The notes below the pieces were generated by a model. That model was given only the letters and a program-made list of their open reading frames with translations, was not told where the DNA came from and did no database searches. Shown here one piece after another: positions 1,162 through 35,822 of a DNA stretch of 64,000 nt (positions are counted from its first letter, which is position 1; each line of letters opens with the position of its first letter). The DNA comes from a phage: NCBI GenBank assembly GCA_025611195.1, contig GCA_025611195.1_4718.2; one strand, 5' to 3'. The position numbers and the translations under genes are program-made.

Positions 1162-1205
1162 CGTCGGATTTCCTTATGTGTTAACGGAAGTGATTTCCAT
1201 AGTAA

Positions 1206-1622
1206 TTACACAGTTTTAGGAAATTCCGGCCAGTCGATATTTGGCGCAGCATCGGTATCGATAGCCGTCACCTCGTCAATGTAATCCAAAACAGCATTAA
1301 GTTGGGCTGTTTCTTCCGGAGTCAGTTTTCGCCCAGCCCGTAATTTTAACTGAATAAGATCAATGGAAGCTAGCGCAGAATCAATCAAAGATTTTTTCAT
1401 CTGTTCTGCCTCGGCGACGAGATCTTCGTGTTGCCGCTCGGGTTCCGGGGGTGCGGTAAACTCACCATTTGAGTATAACCAACCTATTCCAGGCGACACG
1501 GCTACCGTATCGCTAATGCTGACCAACTGTTGATTGTCAGATACATCGAGCTCTGCTTCGCCATCGTAAACAATCGTGTTTACTACTACCCCATTTTCAA
1601 TAACAGCGTATGATGTACTCAT
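1206..1622 (-). CDS. tfa: tail fibre assembly chaperone (lambda Tfa-like)
   Basis: C-terminal region (AEAEQMKKSL...TDAAPNIDWPEFP) resembles the lambda Tfa C-terminus (AEETKKSL...TSTAPDIEWPAVP). Start set at the ATG that overlaps the fibre stop (TAATG); the ORF-track start at 1646 is further upstream. Confidence 0.8.
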   Translation of the reverse strand: MSTSYAVIENGVVVNTIVYDGEAELDVSDNQQLVSISDTVAVSPGIGWLYSNGEFTAPPEPERQHEDLVAEAEQMKKSLIDSALASIDLIQLKLRAGRKLTPEETAQLNAVLDYIDEVTAIDTDAAPNIDWPEFPKTV

Positions 1623-4600
1623 TACATAAACTCCTCGATGATGCAAATCCCGTCAGCGCCACGCCCACCACGCATAACGGTTCCAGTGTAACCGTTATCG
1701 TAAGCGCCGCCACCGCCCGAACCTCGTGCGAGGCCGTTTGACCCACCGCCAACAGCTGCACGACCACCGCCACCCCAATATGACGCACCCCCACCACCAC
1801 ATACAGGAAATGCGCCAGCTTGACCGTCATCACCATCACCACCTGAAATGCGTATATCCCCGGTACTAGGTACACCACCGCTGCCACCGCCAGTGTTTGT
1901 GACGGTTGTTTTTCCTGCACCTTGCCCACCGGGAGCAGTCAGCAGGGATGCAAATTTACTATCCCCGCCCCTGTTTCCAGTTGTTGCCCCGGAACCGCCA
2001 GTGCCACCAGAACCAATTACAACAGAATAACTAGTAGCTGCTACCGTTATAACCGAAATTACTGTTGCCCCGGCCCCACCGCCAGCACCAAAAAACGTTT
2101 CGCTGCCGGAAAAAGCCTGACAACCGCCGCCACCGCCACCGCCGCCGGTTATCGTTACTCTAATCCGTTTTGTTCCTTGTGTTGGGGTGTACGTCCCTGA
2201 CGATGTGAAAACACGCATGTTCAGTAAACGTCCGACATATCCACTAGAATCGGCTAAACCAAGATCTTTAGCTGCTAACGTGATATTAGCTGTGCCATCG
2301 AAAGGTTTACCGTTAATCGTGCGTGCCGTCTGCAGCTTCGTGGCCGTTGCTGCGTTTCCTGATGTATTCTGGTTTCCCGCGGCGTTAACACCTGGTAGAT
2401 TGATGTTCGCACTACCGTCGAAAGACACCCCACCAATAGTGCGGGCTGTTTTCAGTTTTGTCGCCGTGGCAGCATTACCGGTCGTGTCTTGGTTACCGGT
2501 GGTGTTTACCCCAGGTAGGTTGATATTGGCTGTTCCGTTAAATGAAACACCACCAATCGTCCTTGCCGTTTGCAACTTCGTTGCGGATGCCGCATTCCCC
2601 GTGGTGTTTTGGTTACCCGTCGCATTCACGCCTGGGATGCTATCCTTAGATGTGTAGATCTGTGCCCATTCCGACCAGTTCGAGTCGGCCGCATCACGAC
2701 GTGAACGTAGGTAAGCTGGAGCGTGTGCGCCTGAGGTACCTGACCACCCAATGAGGATTTCACCTTCACCGACCGATGAAGCCCCTTTAAGATGAATGAT
2801 GTTACCATAAGCGGTGGGATATCCGTTATTGTACGCTTCATACATCTGGATGCCCGCATTGCTGCCCTGAGCCGTGTTAGCTAAGGCCGTAACACGACCT
2901 TTGGAAGCGAGAGCGTTAATACTGAAGCTAATATCCTTAGTACCGTCAAAGGCGACCCCATTAATCTTCCGTGCTGTTTGGAGTTTCGTAGCAGTAGCCG
3001 CATTACCAGAGGTACTCTGATTACCTGCTTTGTTCACGCCCGGTAAATCAATGTTGGCTGTTCCATCAAAGGACACACCCCCGATGGTTCTCGCTGTCTG
3101 GAGTTTTGTTGCTGAACCAGCGTTTCCAGAAGTGCTTTGATTACCTGCCGCGTTGACACCCGGTAGGTCAATGCTAGCAGAACCATCAAAAGAAACTCCA
3201 CCGATCGTGATCGGTGTTTTCAATTTCGTGGCTGTCGCAGCATTACCCGTCGTATTCTGATTGCCAGCAGCATTAACACCAGGTAATGCGATATCGGTCG
3301 TACCATCGAACGCAACACCACCGACTTTACGGGCGGTCTGTAGCTTGGTCGCTGTAGCCGCGTTGCCGCTGGTATTTTGCGTGCCTGCTTTATTTACGCC
3401 AGGCAAATCAATGTTCGCAGTACCATCAAAAGAAACACCCCCGATGGTTCTCGCGGTCTCAAGTTTGGTTGCGCTTCCTGCGTTTCCGCTGGTGCTTTGA
3501 TTTCCCGCTGCATCAACACCTGGTAGACTGATGCTGGCCGAACCATCGAAACTCACACCGCCGATAGTAACAGCGGTTTTCAACTTCGTCGCCGTTGCTG
3601 CGTTACCGGTTGTATTTTGATTGCCTGTCGCATTAACGCCCGGTAATACAATATCCGCTGTTCCGTCAAAGGCAACGCCACCGATTCTACGTGCAGTTTG
3701 TAGCTTGGTTGCACTAGCAGCGTTACCGCTGGTATTCTGGGTGCCAGCTTTGTTAACACCGGGGAGATCGATATTAGCAGAACCATCGAAGCTGACGCCA
3801 CCTATCGTTCTTGCAGTAGCGAGTTTAGCTGCTGTGGCTGCATTATTACCCACTTTCAGCCAATCATCCCATGGACCATCCTGGCCGTTCCATGATGCCG
3901 TTAAACTACGTACGTAAATATTGCCGGTACGTACAGTGTAACGTTGCGTTCCACCGAATTGTCCGGCAGGGAGCACTTCAAGGTAACCTGCAGCATTTGC
4001 TTCAGGGAAATTGTGGGCGACGTCCGCGTTCGTTGATACTGGTTTAGACCAAATACCCACAGACGCTTCAACCGGACCGTAAGTATTCAGATTTGCGTCG
4101 GTGGGGAGCTGTCCTCGAAAACGTTGGAATTGTGTTGCCGATAACCCCAACGTTGTTTGCATGCTTTCAATGCTGGATTGCTGTAGTAACGTTCGTGCTG
4201 TCGACGTAATCACGGCAAGCGCAACTTTATTAACGCCGGTGAAATACGGGAGTTTGTCTGCTGATGTCGCTAAACCTGAAAAGGCGGTCAGTAATGCGTT
4301 AAGGGGCTGCTTCCCAGCTAACGCATTTGTTACCGTCGTTGCGAAATTAGGATCACTTCCTATAGCTCGAGCCAGCTTATTAAGCGTATTTAGCGTCGCT
4401 GGTGATGAGTCGATCAGCGCTGCGATCGCACGCATCACAAATTCCGTGTTGGCAATCTGTTGACTGCTATTGTTAACTGCTGCGGTGGGCGCTGCTGGCG
4501 TACCAGTGAATACAGGGCTATTAAGATCCGCTTTGAGGGCGATGAGGCGTTTAAGCGCTTCGACATCAACTTTCAGGTTTTCCCATCCGATGAGAGAACC

Positions 4601-5500
4601 ACCACCGCTGGTATGATAACGGTTGTACCAGAAGTCACCGTTAACACCCAAAAAGAATATTCCCTTCTCTTCGTTTTGTGGGCCGGAACTATTTCGTGAT
4701 GCGCTGATATATTTGATTTTAATAAGGCCGTTAAACACCACTCCTGGGATTATTTCGCTGCTTCCAGCTAACTGTGATACTTGGTAAATCCCCGGGGTCG
4801 CGGCTTTAACCCACGTTAAGAATTCTGTTACTCCAGAGTTACCACTGAAATTCTTAACGTCGGTAAGTATCGCACCATAACCGAACATACCGGGCAGAGC
4901 AACTCGCCCGTTGGTACGGTCACGAATATTTGATGCGACCACAGGTAGCTGTTTACGAACGTTATTAACCGCCTTTGGTGTGGCCGATTTTGTCTCATCG
5001 TCACTATCGATGGCATTGCTCAGGATGGTCAGTCCTCGCGTAGCAGTAGTTGCATCAGGAAGAAATGCGTTATCCAACACCTTAAGCTGTATTGCACTCG
5101 TATTACTAACAACGACATGCATCTGACAGTTAAGAACGCTAGTTGCGCCTTCGGTAGGCGTAGGCTTATATCTTTCTGGCGCACTGCAGACGGCAATCAG
5201 AACACCCTTGTCGTCGTACAGACCGATCTCACGTACCCAGAACCCACCTTGACCAGCAGGAATAATACCCTCAACGACAATCCTGGTTGTACTATCGCCA
5301 TCCGCATGGATATTAGAAACTTCCCCACGATAAACTTCGTGAACAAGCGCTGTTTGGCTGGCGGTCGGGGTTGGTGTCGAGCCGTTACCATCACCAACGG
5401 CAAAGTGTGTGATTTTTAGTTTCTCACCGTCGGGAAGTAACGCAGCGGTGATACGTTCTGCTCCTTTATCGGTAACTACCGTTTTATATGCTGTACTCAT
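1622..5500 (-). CDS. tail fibre protein (P2 gpH-like N-terminus, repeat shaft, glycine-rich C-terminal tip)
   Basis: 1292 aa. N-terminus (KTVVTDKGAERITAALLPDGEKLKITHFAVGDG...GGFWVREIGLYDDKGVLIAV) matches the P2 gpH tail-collar fibre N-terminal domain. About eleven 38-aa shaft repeats (TATKLKTARTIGGVSFDGSANIDLPGVNAAGNQ). Poly-Gly C-terminal domain. Followed by Tfa. Confidence 0.9.
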   Translation of the reverse strand: MSTAYKTVVTDKGAERITAALLPDGEKLKITHFAVGDGNGSTPTPTASQTALVHEVYRGEVSNIHADGDSTTRIVVEGIIPAGQGGFWVREIGLYDDKGVLIAVCSAPERYKPTPTEGATSVLNCQMHVVVSNTSAIQLKVLDNAFLPDATTATRGLTILSNAIDSDDETKSATPKAVNNVRKQLPVVASNIRDRTNGRVALPGMFGYGAILTDVKNFSGNSGVTEFLTWVKAATPGIYQVSQLAGSSEIIPGVVFNGLIKIKYISASRNSSGPQNEEKGIFFLGVNGDFWYNRYHTSGGGSLIGWENLKVDVEALKRLIALKADLNSPVFTGTPAAPTAAVNNSSQQIANTEFVMRAIAALIDSSPATLNTLNKLARAIGSDPNFATTVTNALAGKQPLNALLTAFSGLATSADKLPYFTGVNKVALAVITSTARTLLQQSSIESMQTTLGLSATQFQRFRGQLPTDANLNTYGPVEASVGIWSKPVSTNADVAHNFPEANAAGYLEVLPAGQFGGTQRYTVRTGNIYVRSLTASWNGQDGPWDDWLKVGNNAATAAKLATARTIGGVSFDGSANIDLPGVNKAGTQNTSGNAASATKLQTARRIGGVAFDGTADIVLPGVNATGNQNTTGNAATATKLKTAVTIGGVSFDGSASISLPGVDAAGNQSTSGNAGSATKLETARTIGGVSFDGTANIDLPGVNKAGTQNTSGNAATATKLQTARKVGGVAFDGTTDIALPGVNAAGNQNTTGNAATATKLKTPITIGGVSFDGSASIDLPGVNAAGNQSTSGNAGSATKLQTARTIGGVSFDGTANIDLPGVNKAGNQSTSGNAATATKLQTARKINGVAFDGTKDISFSINALASKGRVTALANTAQGSNAGIQMYEAYNNGYPTAYGNIIHLKGASSVGEGEILIGWSGTSGAHAPAYLRSRRDAADSNWSEWAQIYTSKDSIPGVNATGNQNTTGNAASATKLQTARTIGGVSFNGTANINLPGVNTTGNQDTTGNAATATKLKTARTIGGVSFDGSANINLPGVNAAGNQNTSGNAATATKLQTARTINGKPFDGTANITLAAKDLGLADSSGYVGRLLNMRVFTSSGTYTPTQGTKRIRVTITGGGGGGGGCQAFSGSETFFGAGGGAGATVISVITVAATSYSVVIGSGGTGGSGATTGNRGGDSKFASLLTAPGGQGAGKTTVTNTGGGSGGVPSTGDIRISGGDGDDGQAGAFPVCGGGGASYWGGGGRAAVGGGSNGLARGSGGGGAYDNGYTGTVMRGGRGADGICIIEEFM
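2290..2640 (-). repeat. intragenic tandem repeat block, about 3 x 114 bp (fibre shaft repeats)
   Basis: Imperfect 114-bp units within the fibre gene, each encoding a ...TARTIGGVSFDG..NI.LPGVN..GNQ.T.GNAA... unit. Confidence 0.8.
2925..3840 (-). repeat. intragenic tandem repeat block, about 8 x 114 bp with 342-bp higher-order periodicity
   Basis: Same 114-bp unit as 2290..2640. Three unit subtypes (K-, R- and V-type) recur in order, giving a 342-bp supra-repeat. Separated from the other block by a roughly 260-bp non-repeat insert. Confidence 0.8.
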
Positions 5501-6193: not shown

Positions 6194-7948
6194 TTATGCT
6201 GCTACATATCCAGGCCAACGTTCTCTTGGCCAGTTTGTTGCGCCCTGTCCAACGTTGTCCTTACCAGAAATTACGTTACTTACATCCCATCCACTCAGAT
6301 CCTGATTGAACGCGGTGTTTTCGCGCATCATGAGATCGATCTTACGTAGTGAACGGGTATTCCAGCCGGAAATGTCTTGGTTGAATGCTGTATTGTAGGC
6401 AAACATGTTAGACACGCTTTGTAATTTTGAGGTGTTCCAACCACTGATGTCGCTATTGAACGGCATGCTTGAGAACATGCTGCTCGCATCAACAAGGCTG
6501 TCGGTTTTCCAATTAACCAGTTTATCACCATCAAGTGCAGCGCTGCTGCTGAACATAAAACTCATGTCGTTAACTTTGGACACATCCCATTTATCCAACC
6601 CGTTACCCACGAACGCAGGACAGGACGAGAACATATAACTCATATTAGTAACCCGACTCACATTCCATTTACTGAAGTCGAGGTTAAGTTTCTGACACCC
6701 TAAGAAGGTTTTAGACATGTTGGTGATACGACTAACATCCCACTCTTGGATGTTGGGGTCGTTAAGTGTCGTTAAATAGTTGAACAACATCGCTAACGAC
6801 GTCCATTTCTCTGGAATCCGGTTTGGTACCGTACGAAGCGATGCGAGGTTGTTGGTTGACGGAGAGCAGAACATGCCGTTATCCCAATTTACGATCTCCG
6901 TAATTTTGGACCCTTTGATCGTCTGAGTGACGTTACCATCTTTCACCATACCTGTAGCGACGATGGTATATTCACCGGTGTCCGCATAATCGTGGGAGTA
7001 GGAGTTGTTGCTTGAGGTCTCCGTTACTTTATTCCCATCACCCCAATCGATATTGACCTTATCCCATCCACCTAGATAGAACTGTACTTTGCCTCCGGTG
7101 GCTTTTAGGATGTATTTACCCCCATTGTCTGTATAATAACAGACGACCATCGAACCGTACAGATTACCTATCTGCCAATCATCCTTTTGCGTTATTGCGA
7201 TTTGCGCCGCACCACGCTGTACGAAGAGTACCGTACGATTCTCGGCAGTCTGTAATGTGGTTATTGCCTGAGCCTTATCGTCCTCGCTAATTTCGCCAGA
7301 CACCACCAAAGCGCTTAACATCCTTTCGAAGTATTCGATCGGTAACTCGGTTCCAACAGACTTATCAACAGACGATACGGCAAGATCACCCAATGCTGCG
7401 GTGGTAGCCAACGCCAATGAACCCTTGGTCATATCTGTTTCTTGGATGTAATGCAGTCCTGTAAGCTGGTACGCTTGAATAATAGTAATCAGGTTCAGCG
7501 TATCGTTAACGACCTGTACCTGTAAATTCCCGGACCATACATAACTGCTTTCAGCAATCGGTAGTTCGACCGACTGAATACCCGATGTTTCAAAGGTGAT
7601 CTTCTTATTAAGATCGGTTTCCAGGAAATCAACCGCGAGGTCGAAATTCATGCCGTACTTTTCAGCGATGGAATCTACGATATTCTTGAAAGCAACATCT
7701 GTGCTTACGATAAAACGTAACGGAATTCCTGTAAACGCTTTAGCGATATCTCGACGAACATACGTAAGCGATTGTTCGAAGAAATAGGGACTGTTATCTC
7801 CAGGCTTGATGGTTACCTGACACGCTTCAGGATATTCAGCTGGGATGAACGATTCGAATTTAACATCAGATTCCTTCAACGAAAGCTTGTTATTTCGGTT
7901 CACTAACGCCAGAAGATCGGCTTTCCATCCGGGGTAAACTGTAGACAT
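6194..7948 (-). CDS. fibre-family protein: shared N-terminal module plus C-terminal DUF285/BspA-type repeats
   Basis: N-terminus MSTVYPGWKADLLALVNRNN... is paralogous to three other products. C-terminal half has repeated WDVS.V.NMS.MF..C.AFNQDISGW units typical of DUF285 (Mycoplasma/BspA-like) repeats. Start moved to ATG 7948 (GGAGTG upstream). Confidence 0.7.
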   Translation of the reverse strand: MSTVYPGWKADLLALVNRNNKLSLKESDVKFESFIPAEYPEACQVTIKPGDNSPYFFEQSLTYVRRDIAKAFTGIPLRFIVSTDVAFKNIVDSIAEKYGMNFDLAVDFLETDLNKKITFETSGIQSVELPIAESSYVWSGNLQVQVVNDTLNLITIIQAYQLTGLHYIQETDMTKGSLALATTAALGDLAVSSVDKSVGTELPIEYFERMLSALVVSGEISEDDKAQAITTLQTAENRTVLFVQRGAAQIAITQKDDWQIGNLYGSMVVCYYTDNGGKYILKATGGKVQFYLGGWDKVNIDWGDGNKVTETSSNNSYSHDYADTGEYTIVATGMVKDGNVTQTIKGSKITEIVNWDNGMFCSPSTNNLASLRTVPNRIPEKWTSLAMLFNYLTTLNDPNIQEWDVSRITNMSKTFLGCQKLNLDFSKWNVSRVTNMSYMFSSCPAFVGNGLDKWDVSKVNDMSFMFSSSAALDGDKLVNWKTDSLVDASSMFSSMPFNSDISGWNTSKLQSVSNMFAYNTAFNQDISGWNTRSLRKIDLMMRENTAFNQDLSGWDVSNVISGKDNVGQGATNWPRERWPGYVAA

Positions 7949-7966
7949 AAGCACTCCAAAGTTCAT

Positions 7967-15701: not shown

Positions 15702-15872
15702 TTACTTCTTCTGATAGAGCGATGATTCAAATTTTAGAAACACCGCTAACGCGAGTGCGAGTAATAACGCACGTACCCACATACCTCCTTGACAACTGTT
15801 GTACAACATAAAGACCAGAGCGATGCCGCCCATATGTAGGCGGCACTTATCGAACAGTGTTGGTTTATACAT
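15702..15872 (-). CDS. possible small membrane ORF (56 aa)
   Basis: Frame MYKPTLFDK...MWVRALLLALALAVFLKFESSLYQKK is hydrophobic and ends just before the holin-like Shine-Dalgarno. No clear Shine-Dalgarno of its own. Confidence 0.25.
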   Translation of the reverse strand: MYKPTLFDKCRLHMGGIALVFMLYNSCQGGMWVRALLLALALAVFLKFESSLYQKK

Positions 15873-16074
15873 AGGAGATTAAACGTTGAATGATTTTTAC
15901 TTTGCCTTTACCCGGACCTTTCTTGCGACGATTCAACAGACGGATACGGTTTCCAATTACGGAATCGCCATCATAATCAGCCTGGAACTGTGATAAAAAA
16001 GCAGGTTGTACCCGGTCGACACCAGGATTGCTATAGAAACGATTGAAACTTAAAAGATGGTTAGTTGGAATCAT
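15865..16074 (-). CDS. small basic protein with KKGPGKGK motif
   Basis: Start moved to ATG 16074 (AAGGA upstream). C-terminus IGNRIRLLNRRKKGPGKGKVKII resembles three small proteins at 33866..34431. Confidence 0.4.
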   Translation of the reverse strand: MIPTNHLLSFNRFYSNPGVDRVQPAFLSQFQADYDGDSVIGNRIRLLNRRKKGPGKGKVKIIQRLISYV

Positions 16075-32900: not shown

Positions 32901-33531
32901 TAATACCCTCTATTAGTTGTACGGCAACTTCTCTTTCGGTGTTATAAAAGAACTTACGGTGAAACTGAACAAGAAGTTTTTCGAATTTATGTTGAACGAT
33001 CTTTTTGCGTTCAATATGACCCAGGGAGAGCAAAGCGCCCATGCAACGTACCGCTTGTTCGAGAACTTGTTTCGCGGTATCGTGATCGTCCGGCAACGGT
33101 AAATCTTCCTCGTCATCTTTCGCGATAAGGCGTCTGATGATGTTATCAATACGTATCTCATCACCGTTAATGAAAGCGCCTTTCTCCCATTCATCAAATC
33201 GTTGATGGATTCGACGTTGTAAGTTGGCCCTGTCTTCCATTAACTCTTTCAACTGTTTTTCTAAGTGGGATACGGTACGGCGGTCGGTATCAGTGAAGTT
33301 TTCCGATTCTTTATACCACCAATCATTACGCGCTTGTAGGTCATTGATGCGAGATATTATCCGACGACACTCGTTAACAAACGCATCACCGTTCGATAGC
33401 TCCGTACCGAAATAGCATTTGTATTTATAACGCATAACACGGATTAAACGTTTCGCTAGAAAACCTTGTTTCTCCAGTTTCTTCTTCAGTTGTGCGTATT
33501 TCTCTTCTTTTGTTTCCGCGATATCTTTCAT
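32884..33531 (-). CDS. hypothetical protein
   Basis: 215-aa ORF; ATGA overlap with the next gene. Confidence 0.5.
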   Translation of the reverse strand: MKDIAETKEEKYAQLKKKLEKQGFLAKRLIRVMRYKYKCYFGTELSNGDAFVNECRRIISRINDLQARNDWWYKESENFTDTDRRTVSHLEKQLKELMEDRANLQRRIHQRFDEWEKGAFINGDEIRIDNIIRRLIAKDDEEDLPLPDDHDTAKQVLEQAVRCMGALLSLGHIERKKIVQHKFEKLLVQFHRKFFYNTEREVAVQLIEGINDDKL

Positions 33532-33845
33532 GTCATATTCTCCGCTATATGCTTTAAACTGTTGCGTATACTTTTCAATCGATGGTTAAATCCGGAACGA
33601 TAACATTTCCGTACAACCCTTGGCGCTCGCGCTTTATTCGCCTGATGAAGCTGTTCATTCACCTGCGACGCTATACGTAAACGTTCTAATAAAGACCTCA
33701 ACCGAACGACAACCAACGGTTGTTCTTTCACCTTCTCTAGTTTGAGTAAAGAGTCAATACGAAACTTTATATCGATAATCTGATTCCTGTTTTTGCGGTA
33801 CTGATGAATATACCAGCATCGACGAAAATAGGTGATGCTAAGCAT
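33528..33845 (-). CDS. hypothetical protein
   Basis: Start moved to ATG 33845 (AAGAGGA upstream); the ORF-track start is TTG. Confidence 0.45.
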   Translation of the reverse strand: MLSITYFRRCWYIHQYRKNRNQIIDIKFRIDSLLKLEKVKEQPLVVVRLRSLLERLRIASQVNEQLHQANKARAPRVVRKCYRSGFNHRLKSIRNSLKHIAENMT

Positions 33846-33865
33846 AGGGTAGATCCTCTTCAACG

Positions 33866-34063
33866 CTATCTCCAACAATACATCGGATTAGGTGCTTTAT
33901 GGCATTTATAAATACCTACTTTCTTCTGTCTACCTTTACCTGGGCCTCGTTTAACGCGTTTGTTATAAACACGACCAAAATATCGTGTGGCGATAAATCG
34001 GGATGTATACATCGGGTCGATATATTCTAGCGTACCTGCTTCTGTCACTTCGAGACATTGCAT
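33866..34063 (-). CDS. small basic protein with K-R-G-P-G-K-G motif
   Basis: GRVYNKRVKRGPGKGRQKKVGIYKC; start moved to ATG 34063 (GAGAGGT upstream). Confidence 0.45.
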   Translation of the reverse strand: MQCLEVTEAGTLEYIDPMYTSRFIATRYFGRVYNKRVKRGPGKGRQKKVGIYKCHKAPNPMYCWR

Positions 34064-34088
34064 GCGTAACCTCTCTTTCATCTAAAAG

Positions 34089-34295
34089 TCAGTCCAACAT
34101 AAGCCATGGCATCGCTTTCGCGATAGAATCCACCGCAGCATTTGCGATCCTTCGTTCAGTCGTTGGTACCACGTGCGCCACGAACCGTTTCCCTTTATTG
34201 CAACCTTTCTTGTGTTTTCCTTTGACTAAACGAACACCAATCATGTCGTTGATAACATGATTTAGTATGTGGCGCTGTAGAGAATTAATCATCAC
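34089..34295 (-). CDS. small basic protein with related Lys/Gly motif
   Basis: IGVRLVKGKHKKGCNKGKRFVAHVV; start overlaps the stop of the upstream small ORF. Confidence 0.45.
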   Translation of the reverse strand: MMINSLQRHILNHVINDMIGVRLVKGKHKKGCNKGKRFVAHVVPTTERRIANAAVDSIAKAMPWLMLD

Positions 34296-34431
34296 TTTTA
34301 CTCCAGGCAGAGAAGATTCTCGGTTTTAGTTCTATCTGTCCGCAAATCCAGGTGTATCGCCATTTACCTTTACGAGGACCTTTCTTATTTTTAACGCCTA
34401 TCAGAATACGATAGGGGTATGACCAAGCCAT
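34285..34431 (-). CDS. small basic protein with KNKKGPRKGK motif (48 aa)
   Basis: Not in the ORF track (under 60 aa). ATG at 34431 with AGGAG 7 nt upstream; ILIGVKNKKGPRKGKWRYTWIC; stop overlaps the next start. Confidence 0.45.
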   Translation of the reverse strand: MAWSYPYRILIGVKNKKGPRKGKWRYTWICGQIELKPRIFSAWSKSDD

Positions 34432-34461
34432 TCTAAACTCCTAAAATAAATCTCGATATTC

Positions 34462-34755
34462 TTAATGCAATTGCTTCTTAAAACCTAATTTAAGAAGCGT
34501 CATTCTCTTGTCGATGGTATCCAAGGCTTCCAGCAAGGATTTACGCTGCTCCTTTGTAAGCATATCGACGCGTAGACGTTCGTTAATTTCTGCTTTAAGC
34601 TGTATAGGAAGGGTTTGTGTAAGTATGCTATCAGCCTCCATCTCGTAACTATTTTTCGGTATGGGTAATGCTTCAGTAACACCAGTGAGATAAAAACCGA
34701 TAGTGGTTACTCGCTCATCCATTGCTTCTAACAGTTCAGAACTTACTTCATCCAC
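34462..34755 (-). CDS. hypothetical protein
   Basis: GTG start at 34755 with GGAG 7 nt upstream; alternative ATG at 34722. Confidence 0.4.
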   Translation of the reverse strand: MDEVSSELLEAMDERVTTIGFYLTGVTEALPIPKNSYEMEADSILTQTLPIQLKAEINERLRVDMLTKEQRKSLLEALDTIDKRMTLLKLGFKKQLH

Positions 34756-34772
34756 GATAGTTCTCCGTATTA

Positions 34773-34790
34773 GGGTGGGCGTACCCACCC
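34773..34790 (-). promoter_or_regulatory. stem-loop GGGTGGG-CGTA-CCCACCC
   Basis: Perfect 7-bp stem between the thymidylate synthase stop and the next gene. Confidence 0.45.
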
Positions 34791-34802
34791 CCAGTTGTTA
34801 AT

Positions 34803-35822
34803 TTACACCGCCACCTTAGCCTTGATAGCCGGATGTGATTGATATCCGACGAACACAAAGTCTTCGTAACGGTAATCCGTAATACTTTCCGGTTTACGTA
34901 CGATTGTTAGCTTCGGTAATGGATACGGCTCACGGCTGAGCTGCTCTTTAACCTGTTCGAAGTGGTTGTGATAGATGTGGCAATCTCCACCCGTCCACAC
35001 GAACTCACCAACGTCCATATTCAGCTGTTGGGCAAGCATATGCGTCAGCAACGAATATGATGCGATGTTGAACGGTTTCCCGAGCACTGCGTCGCACGAA
35101 CGCTGGTAAAGCTGACAGGATAAGGCACGTGTTGGTACGTTATGCGCATTCAACCAAAGTTCTGTTTCACTGTGTCGTACATCATCCGTAACCCACTGGG
35201 TTCTTAATACGTCATTGCGTTGAACATAACCAACGCGTTCATCGATGGTGAGCTCGTGGGTATAGAACTGATAAAATGAATGGCACGGAGCGAGATGCAT
35301 ATCGTCTAAATCACCTACGTTCCACGCGCTAACGATGATCCGTCGAGAATCGGGGTCTTCTTTAAGCTGGCGCATCACGTTTGCAATCTGATCGTGATGT
35401 CTAACATACACGAGGTGTTTTAGCATACCGTCATTAAGAATGCCGCAATACTCATAGCCGCGTTGCATCAACTCACGAGTACGTTCTGTATCGTGCGGAA
35501 CAACCACTTTGTAGTCGATCCATTCCCGCCATTGTTTGCCGTAAATCGGTCCTAGATTCCCTTCTTCGTCAGCCCACTCATTCCAAATACGAACACCGTT
35601 ATCTTGAAGATAAGCAACGTTTGTGTCGCCGTTAAGAAACCAGAGCAGTTCGTGGATAACGCTCTTAAGGTGAATCTTCTTGGTGGTTACCAGCGGGAAC
35701 CCTTTCTTCAAGTCAAAACGCATCTGACGTCCGAATACAGAACGGGTCCCGGTGCCTGTACGATCGGCTTTATCACGGCCGTTATCCATGATGTCTTGCA
35801 AAAGGTCCAAATACTGTTTCAT
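34803..35822 (-). CDS. thyA: thymidylate synthase with two insertions
   Basis: Near-colinear with E. coli ThyA (MKQYL.L.Q..., DRTGTGT, LLWFL.GDTN, SAWNV, catalytic [21 protein letters not shown]). Two inserts of about 35 and 40 aa, after WREW and after FYQFY; 339 aa against 264. Confidence 0.9.

Follow-up and report, generated by a model that had tools for sequence, protein, structure and literature searches.

An eight-residue basic loop shared by four small, otherwise dissimilar proteins of a Goslar-like jumbo phage

At the level of sequence, the one notable point of this analysis is an eight-residue loop that is held invariant over four otherwise dissimilar, apparently early phage proteins, which we call A, B, C, and D. 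All of them are encoded in the 64,000-nucleotide stretch of DNA that was analysed, referred to as the window in the following. The only element common to the four proteins is a [KR][KR]-G-[PC]-x-[KR]-G-[KR] loop that follows a hydrophobic strand and precedes a further hydrophobic stretch. A, B, C, and D are genuine protein-coding genes, which is based on purifying selection, on the conservation of reading frame and synteny, and on transcription.

The whole window is Goslar-like: in blastn comparisons it is colinear with positions 97.8–160.8 kb of Goslar at ~92–93% identity. Goslar is a nucleus-forming jumbo phage (chimallivirus) with a genome of 237,307 bp. The window region 33400–34900 shows 96.4% identity to Escherichia phage vB_EcoM_Goslar (MK327938) and matched no phage record other than Goslar; likewise, no match was obtained for the region of the tandem genes C, B, and A (the trio) in complete E. 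coli genomes and plasmids. Nearly every gene of the window is carried on the minus strand. Elsewhere in the window, the 708-nt Goslar gene gp120 is missing, with the blastn alignment jumping from Goslar position 121394 to 122106 at window position ~24955. The tail-fibre-like ORF at 1622..5500 (−; 1292 aa) contains many internal repeats within 2273–4102 and gives multiple off-diagonal blastn matches of 65–82% identity on Goslar 99.5–101.4 kb; with 80–87% to Goslar it is far more diverged than the remaining window. A 590-aa ORF at 6194..7966 (−) combines an N-terminal DUF7941 module (E 3e-23) with DUF285/BspA-type repeats (E 7e-46), and for positions 6207–7951 Goslar has no colinear counterpart, there being just 68% similarity to part of gp161. 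The DUF7941 family has been proposed in a 2026 preprint to form baseplate filaments involved in host recognition. The 590-aa ORF looks like an extra member of this family and may mark a difference in host range from Goslar.

An earlier note on this DNA had described three consecutive small ORFs and a fourth one further away, and all of them exist as described there, with the quoted peptide stretches being exact. The gene for C, the Goslar gp139 ortholog, lies at 34285..34431 (−) and encodes a protein of 48 aa with a pI of 10.2 (MAWSYPYRILIGVKNKKGPRKGKWRYTWICGQIELKPRIFSAWSKSDD) that is 98% identical to gp139. B is the gp138 ortholog (34089..34292, −; 67 aa from the ATG, pI 10.7), whereby an alternative GTG start one codon upstream would yield 68 aa. 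A, the gp137 ortholog (33866..34063, −), comprises 65 aa with a pI of 10.0; its start was set by comparison with Goslar, and a 71-aa product from an upstream ATG was rejected, since that reading is absent from Goslar. D is the gp102 ortholog (15865..16074, −; 69 aa, pI 10.7) and is located 18 kb from the trio. The Goslar counterparts gp139, gp138, gp137, and gp102 are all annotated as hypothetical proteins. Each of the four proteins has 11–14 lysine and arginine residues versus 3–4 aspartate and glutamate residues, and a Shine-Dalgarno-like sequence is found 7–10 nt upstream of all four ORFs.

The trio sits downstream of the thymidylate synthase gene in a dense same-strand block of small genes that are annotated without function. 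The thymidylate synthase gene (gp141 homolog, 34803..35822, −) heads the order thyA-gp140-C-B-A-gp136, with the gp140 homolog (34462..34788, −) directly upstream of C in the same orientation and the gp136 homolog (33528..33845, −) 20 nt downstream of A, both of unassigned function. The stop of C and the start of B overlap by 8 nt (ATGATTAA), whereas B and A are separated by a 25-nt spacer, and all junctions other than C/B measure 20–30 nt. The genes are thus tightly packed, but translational coupling, which had been suggested for the entire trio, is evident only for C/B. Pfam searches with the neighbouring genes gp134–136, gp140, gp142, and gp143 provided no functional context. A scan for σ70 promoters and terminators, which is unsuited to phage RNA polymerases, gave nothing above shuffle expectation. 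On the opposite strand, an 85-aa antisense ORF (34003..34260, +) overlaps A and B; it is probably spurious, as the substitutions fit the minus-strand frames.

The motif of C reads KKGPRKGK (34363..34386, −) and falls within the predicted hairpin loop (residues 15–23). Pattern search and codon comparison located the corresponding motifs of B (KKGCNKGK, 34188..34211, −), A (KRGPGKGR, 33929..33952, −), and D (KKGPGKGK, 15901..15924, −). In a six-frame translation of the 64-kb window, the pattern [KR][KR]G..[KR]G[KR] occurs at only four sites, all of them in A–D, and a six-frame search of the complete Goslar genome (237,307 bp) found it in the same four genes and nowhere else. The number of sites expected by chance, taken from 300 first-order Markov simulations of the window, had a mean of 0.077 and a maximum of 1. 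Thus, the shared hydrophobic-basic-hydrophobic core to which the earlier note had drawn attention is non-random.

Across ~100 ortholog clusters the motif is near-invariant as a peptide, but its codons vary synonymously: GGA/GGG, AAA/AAG, GGT/GGC, and, in B, TGC/TGT exchanges occur, and proline is encoded by CCT, CCC, CCA, or CCG among orthologs and paralogs. Because the codons for a given motif residue differ among orthologs and paralogs, it is the peptide that is under constraint, and this variation rules out a repeat or regulatory element at the DNA level.

Purifying selection was assessed by Nei-Gojobori dN/dS of the window against Goslar and three more strongly diverged Goslar-like genomes, one from IMG/VR (L008) and two from public read assemblies (L009 and L010). 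Against these four genomes, values of 0.03–0.25 were obtained for C and 0.05–0.33 for B. For A the values were 0.28–0.44, one low-count A pair having 1 synonymous and 4 non-synonymous changes, and A evolves fastest among the three tandem genes. The neighbouring gp140 homolog gave 0.04–0.31, and the conserved C-terminal 39 codons of D gave 0.16–0.25 in the window comparisons. Both indels between the window and Goslar in the trio stretch are intergenic. Every relative examined (L008, L009, L010, and Goslar) retains the order thyA-gp140-C-B-A-gp136, so that conservation of both frame and gene order holds in four other Goslar-like genomes; the gp103-D-gp101 neighbourhood is kept at two further loci (L013 and L014).

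Some relatives deviate in individual genes. In L010 (Logan SRR13434647), gp137 is present at positions 2112–2211 as an internally deleted remnant (MQCLEATEE...KAHNPMCYWR*), from which ~45 central codons including the motif are gone, with B and C intact. This remnant implies that A is dispensable in that relative. The same contig carries at 1170–1454 (+), between thyA and the gp140 homolog, an extra 94-aa gene that neither the window nor Goslar possesses and that shows weak helix-turn-helix matches (Mor, HTH_23, and Rrf2; E 0.007–0.02). In L009, the gp139 ortholog (4334–4624, +) is 96 aa long and bears an acidic 48-aa N-terminal extension, without an internal methionine at the usual start, which indicates that fusion of the hairpin module to a different segment is possible.

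These data bear on the very improbable explanation that the ORFs are remnants of larger genes in decay, or a repeat at the DNA level read as protein, with products that have no function. Two resemblances speak for decay. Residues 33–67 of B align with residues ~41–87 of GluRS in a PDB profile search (E 0.17), and the invariant ADYDGD of D is reminiscent of the NADFDGD of the RNA polymerase β' subunit. However, the GluRS E-value is non-significant and is judged to be chance, and an exhaustive profile search with B returned no synthetase. Apart from D, Goslar has a single D[FYW]DGD site, at ~219.0 kb within the putative chitinase gene gp232; hence, D was not derived by copying a polymerase motif of Goslar. 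Moreover, dN/dS is well below 1, the frames are intact across genomes, and the synonymous variation within the motif excludes a DNA-level element. For D, a match to eL8 (E ~1) was also discarded.

Transcript data for the Goslar counterparts are contained in a published RNA-seq experiment, in which control infections were compared with a ChmA knock-down at 30 mpi (doi 10.1101/2023.09.20.558163, Supplementary Table 2). In the control, 174–222 reads were recorded for gp137, 191–219 for gp138, 62–92 for gp139, and 274–322 for gp102. Expressed as reads per kilobase, gp137, gp138, and gp102 reach the order of the major capsid gene, with several-fold lower values for gp139. Hence, all four genes are transcribed during Goslar infection, and the possibility that the ORFs are spurious, lacking conservation and expression, does not hold, since the genes are both conserved and transcribed. 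Under ChmA knock-down, the log2 fold change of the four genes is ~ −1 to +1.3, compared to −3 to −7 for structural genes. According to the authors, the knock-down transcriptome represents the early programme, in which the virion RNA polymerase transcribes an injected genome that is enclosed in a lipid vesicle (doi 10.1101/2023.09.20.558163). The small change under knock-down means that the four genes behave as early genes; we infer the early class of gp102 and gp137–139 from the published table, the authors themselves saying nothing on these genes.

The protein content of the Goslar virion has been determined by LC-MS/MS (doi 10.64898/2026.04.21.720040, Table S4). Within the part of this source that was available, gp102 and gp136–140 are not among the virion proteins listed, and gp103, gp135, and gp146 are, whereby tiny proteins are easier to miss in virion mass spectrometry. 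By inspection, all four proteins would yield tryptic peptides of 8–22 residues, and candidate peptides for their mass spectrometric detection are HILNHVINDMIGVR, FVAHVVPTTER, YTWICGQIELKPR, and VQPAFLSQFQADYDGDSVIGNR. Given these normal-sized peptides and the absence from the proteins listed in that part of the source, appreciable packaging is unlikely. The earlier note had named internal virion proteins as one possibility, and we see hardly any prospect that the four are internal or DNA-condensing proteins packaged with the genome. In their small size and strong basicity they resemble some packaged DNA-binding proteins, but they do not appear among the listed Goslar virion proteins as far as the source was available, although gp103 and gp135 do. 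In addition, their transcription is independent of ChmA, whereas that of structural genes falls 8- to 100-fold.

Regarding the extent of the family, a profile built from the four sequences led to ~100 protein clusters, all of which are A, B, C, or D orthologs and many of which come from contigs of 235–250 kb; those with a name all read “hypothetical protein”. An exhaustive hmmsearch with the B profile against 1.84 billion representatives identified B itself and two further copies of it, one truncated and one frameshifted, and nothing else. In 50,697 phage records searched by tblastn, A and B matched Goslar alone, and the 142 stretches that matched in two pattern scans of IMG/VR for the motif led to just two confirmed Goslar-like contigs. 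Searches of the four proteins, in some cases with longer variants, against Pfam, PHROGs, NCBIfam, and PDB sequences gave nothing significant. In hmmscan against Pfam-A at E ≤ 10, nothing was reported for A, C, and D and only DUF7439 (E 0.14) for B. No description of the four proteins was found in literature searches. As far as these collections reach, the family is confined to Goslar-like phages and belongs to no named family, which agrees with the note's remark that it was not recognised.

The exact C protein is present on 418 public contigs and the exact B protein on 383, many of them 235–259 kb long. Some of these contigs belong to assemblies filed under Salmonella, Shigella, E. coli, or Enterobacter. 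Goslar-like phages thus seem to travel with enterobacterial isolates, either in a carrier state or as contamination.

In order to describe the fold of the shared element, we rely on predicted models. AlphaFold2 predicted for C a long β-hairpin with strands at residues 3–14 and 24–35, the loop NKKGPRKGK at residues 15–23, and a disordered C-terminus. The pLDDT was 92–93 over residues 11–30 in this prediction, which used a 24-sequence family alignment mixing the four subfamilies. A separately deposited prediction for Goslar gp139, the BFVD model, superimposes on the C model with a TM of 0.63. For B, a prediction from its own shallow alignment resulted in a low-confidence helix-disordered loop-helix (pLDDT 55.7, motif region below 50), and the hairpin is consequently supported for C only. 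As to one fold for all four proteins, profile-profile comparisons detect nothing beyond the motif. The best Foldseek matches of C in the PDB were to the DNA-contacting basic hairpin of the methyl-CpG-binding domain (MBD), which were non-significant, with a local rmsd of 0.9 Å over 22 residues. If side chains alternate along strand 1 of the C model, W3, Y5, Y7, I9, I11, and V13 would form a largely aromatic face, which would need to be buried by dimerisation or by a ligand.

Such a face is also a feature of the alternative that the proteins are cationic amphipathic β-hairpin peptides binding anionic phospholipid of the inner membrane or of the early-infection vesicle. They would then resemble arginine- and tryptophan-rich hairpin antimicrobial peptides: C has only 48 aa, is rich in W, Y, K, and R, and is predicted as a hairpin with a largely aromatic face, again provided that side chains alternate, and the genes are expressed while the lipid vesicle exists. 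We nevertheless regard this alternative as improbable. The hydrophobic stretches are too short to span a membrane, B and D are less aromatic, neither a signal peptide nor a disulfide pattern is present, and the strict G-P-x-K-G pattern suggests specific recognition rather than generic charge.

The relation among the four proteins is close only around the motif. In hhalign comparisons, A and D gave an E-value of 5.8e-5 with a probability of 66%, and the remaining pairs gave E-values of 0.006–0.009 with a probability of ~5%, in each case over 13–22 columns round the motif. The joint alignment contains one weak second shared feature, a P...W near the C-terminus of A, B, and C. This feature and the tandem arrangement hint at duplication. 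The four proteins may thus either be old tandem duplicates that diverged outside the loop, or the loop may be a module shared by unrelated proteins; under either origin the loop would be the functional core.

D varies in length. An alignment of 22 orthologs defines its core as a C-terminal ADYDGD-x8-IRLLNRRKKGPGKGKVKIIQRLISYV. Forms of 63, 69, and 96 aa as well as a minimal form of 47 aa (P0092) all keep ADYDG[DE]...IRLLNRxKKGPGKGKVKIxQRLIxYV, and large N-terminal changes are tolerated. The invariant acidic ADYDG[DE] is situated 8 residues before IRLL, with the intervening patch occurring in two allelic versions (SVIGNR-like and VVTRTR). The 96-aa form (L013 and L014, 2501–2791) possesses an internal duplication of ~27 aa (GDRDSDNAVRERIRLLVDRKNSDNY versus ADYDGDSVIGNRIRLLNRRKKGPGKGK), whereby the first copy is without the K/G motif.

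It could also be that the motif is a portable short docking motif on otherwise unrelated proteins, which bind one common protein or compartment and not nucleic acid; we consider this unlikely, but less so than lipid binding. As partners, one could think of the surface of the ribosome, the early-infection vesicle, the machinery for import into the phage nucleus, or a host factor. In agreement with docking, the similarity of the subfamilies is confined to the 13–22 columns round the motif, the motif is far better conserved than its flanks, D retains it while varying N-terminally down to the 47 aa of P0092, and all four genes share one early expression pattern. On the other hand, a structured element rather than a disordered linear motif is suggested by the conservation of the hydrophobic flanks and by the hairpin prediction, and nucleus import in chimalliviruses is reported to depend on folded surfaces and not on linear tags. 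In a specific version of docking, which we hold to be improbable, K-K-G-P-G-K-G would act as a portable address tag that directs several otherwise unrelated early proteins of Goslar-like phages to one common destination, such as the host ribosome, the lipid vesicle, or the nucleus-import route. If true, nucleus-forming phages would thereby gain their first described short targeting motif.

Several known families were compared with the four proteins. The earlier note had likened the motif to AT-hooks, and this likeness turned out to be compositional only, as the G-R-P core is missing from all four proteins and from the orthologs read (RGPGKG, KGCNKG, KGPRKG, and KGPGKG). What the motif has in common with the HMGA-type minor-groove binder, whose core is R-G-R-P, is a short segment of Lys/Arg, Gly, and Pro that could follow a groove or backbone. 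Unlike an AT-hook, it is present in a single copy per protein, with conserved hydrophobic strands on both sides, and is predicted to form a hairpin tip rather than a disordered hook. Basic Gly/Pro-rich loops of ribosomal proteins contact RNA, for example KGPGPGR in uS11, GKGKG in uL16, and KGPKNRK in bL27. Their general pattern of a hydrophobic strand, a K/G/P loop, and a strand or helix in a small, very basic protein is similar, but homology behind the ribosomal-protein likeness raised in the note was not supported: neither the KOW motif nor uL24, uS11, uL16, or bL27 was matched in Pfam at E ≤ 10, and NCBIfam gave nothing relevant. The basic L1 loop of the MBD contacts DNA, and the local hairpin superposition with the C model constitutes a likeness to it; however, there was no significant match to the whole MBD fold. 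A Walker A P-loop, defined by G-x(4)-G-K-[ST] after a β-strand, was dismissed by inspection, because the spacing here is G-x3-G-K, followed by V, W, R, or Q and never by S or T, and the proteins are far too small for an NTPase fold. An EF-hand or DxDxDG site in D was likewise rejected, since ADYDGDSVIGNR has D1, D3, and D5 but, in place of the G6 and E12 of the 12-residue calcium loop, S6 and a non-acidic position 12, and Pfam gave no match.

A broader likeness exists to the small early host-takeover proteins of large lytic phages, which are also tiny ORFans that are encoded in a dense same-strand block, expressed early, partly dispensable, absent from the virion, and present in tandem paralog-like copies. 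In contrast to typical proteins of this kind, four dissimilar proteins here keep one loop under strong constraint, which suggests a shared target and not independent functions. On the basis of the models and comparisons, the four are best described as lineage-restricted small basic hairpin-loop proteins.

As to their role, our tentative preference, to which we assign somewhat less than an even chance, is that the four are early, cytoplasmic hairpin-loop proteins that bind nucleic acid. This binding, which the earlier note had also considered, is plausible; the positive charge, the hairpin prediction, and the Gly/Lys loop are indirect pointers to it, and target and cytoplasmic site of action are inferred. 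The tip of the hairpin, basic, rich in glycine, and flexible, would clamp the phosphate backbone of DNA or RNA, the flanking strands of the hairpin would serve as a scaffold, and their hydrophobic and aromatic residues might mediate dimerisation, oligomerisation, or base stacking. The proteins would be made early, while the phage DNA is still enclosed in the vesicle. With the phage DNA enclosed at that stage, the accessible targets would be the host nucleoid, host RNA, ribosomes, or phage mRNA, and such targets would make an accessory role in host takeover or RNA handling likely. A point against the nucleic-acid reading is that acidic protein surfaces and anionic lipids are equally possible ligands of basic, aromatic hairpins.

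Jumbo phages commonly carry small early genes that are specific to their lineage, and nucleus-forming jumbo phages have many early genes without an assigned function that act before the protein nucleus exists. Since the family is restricted to one lineage and a relative can do without one member, only a modest impact is to be expected unless the target is unusual. At 48–69 aa the proteins are within reach of chemical synthesis or direct expression, and the motif offers a clean mutational handle. That four proteins diverged in everything except one eight-residue loop would suggest that, in the first minutes of infection, they share one molecular target. If this target is host DNA, RNA, or the ribosome, the four genes would add a compact host-takeover module to what is known of these phages; if the motif is a targeting tag, it would bear on protein sorting in nucleus-forming phages.
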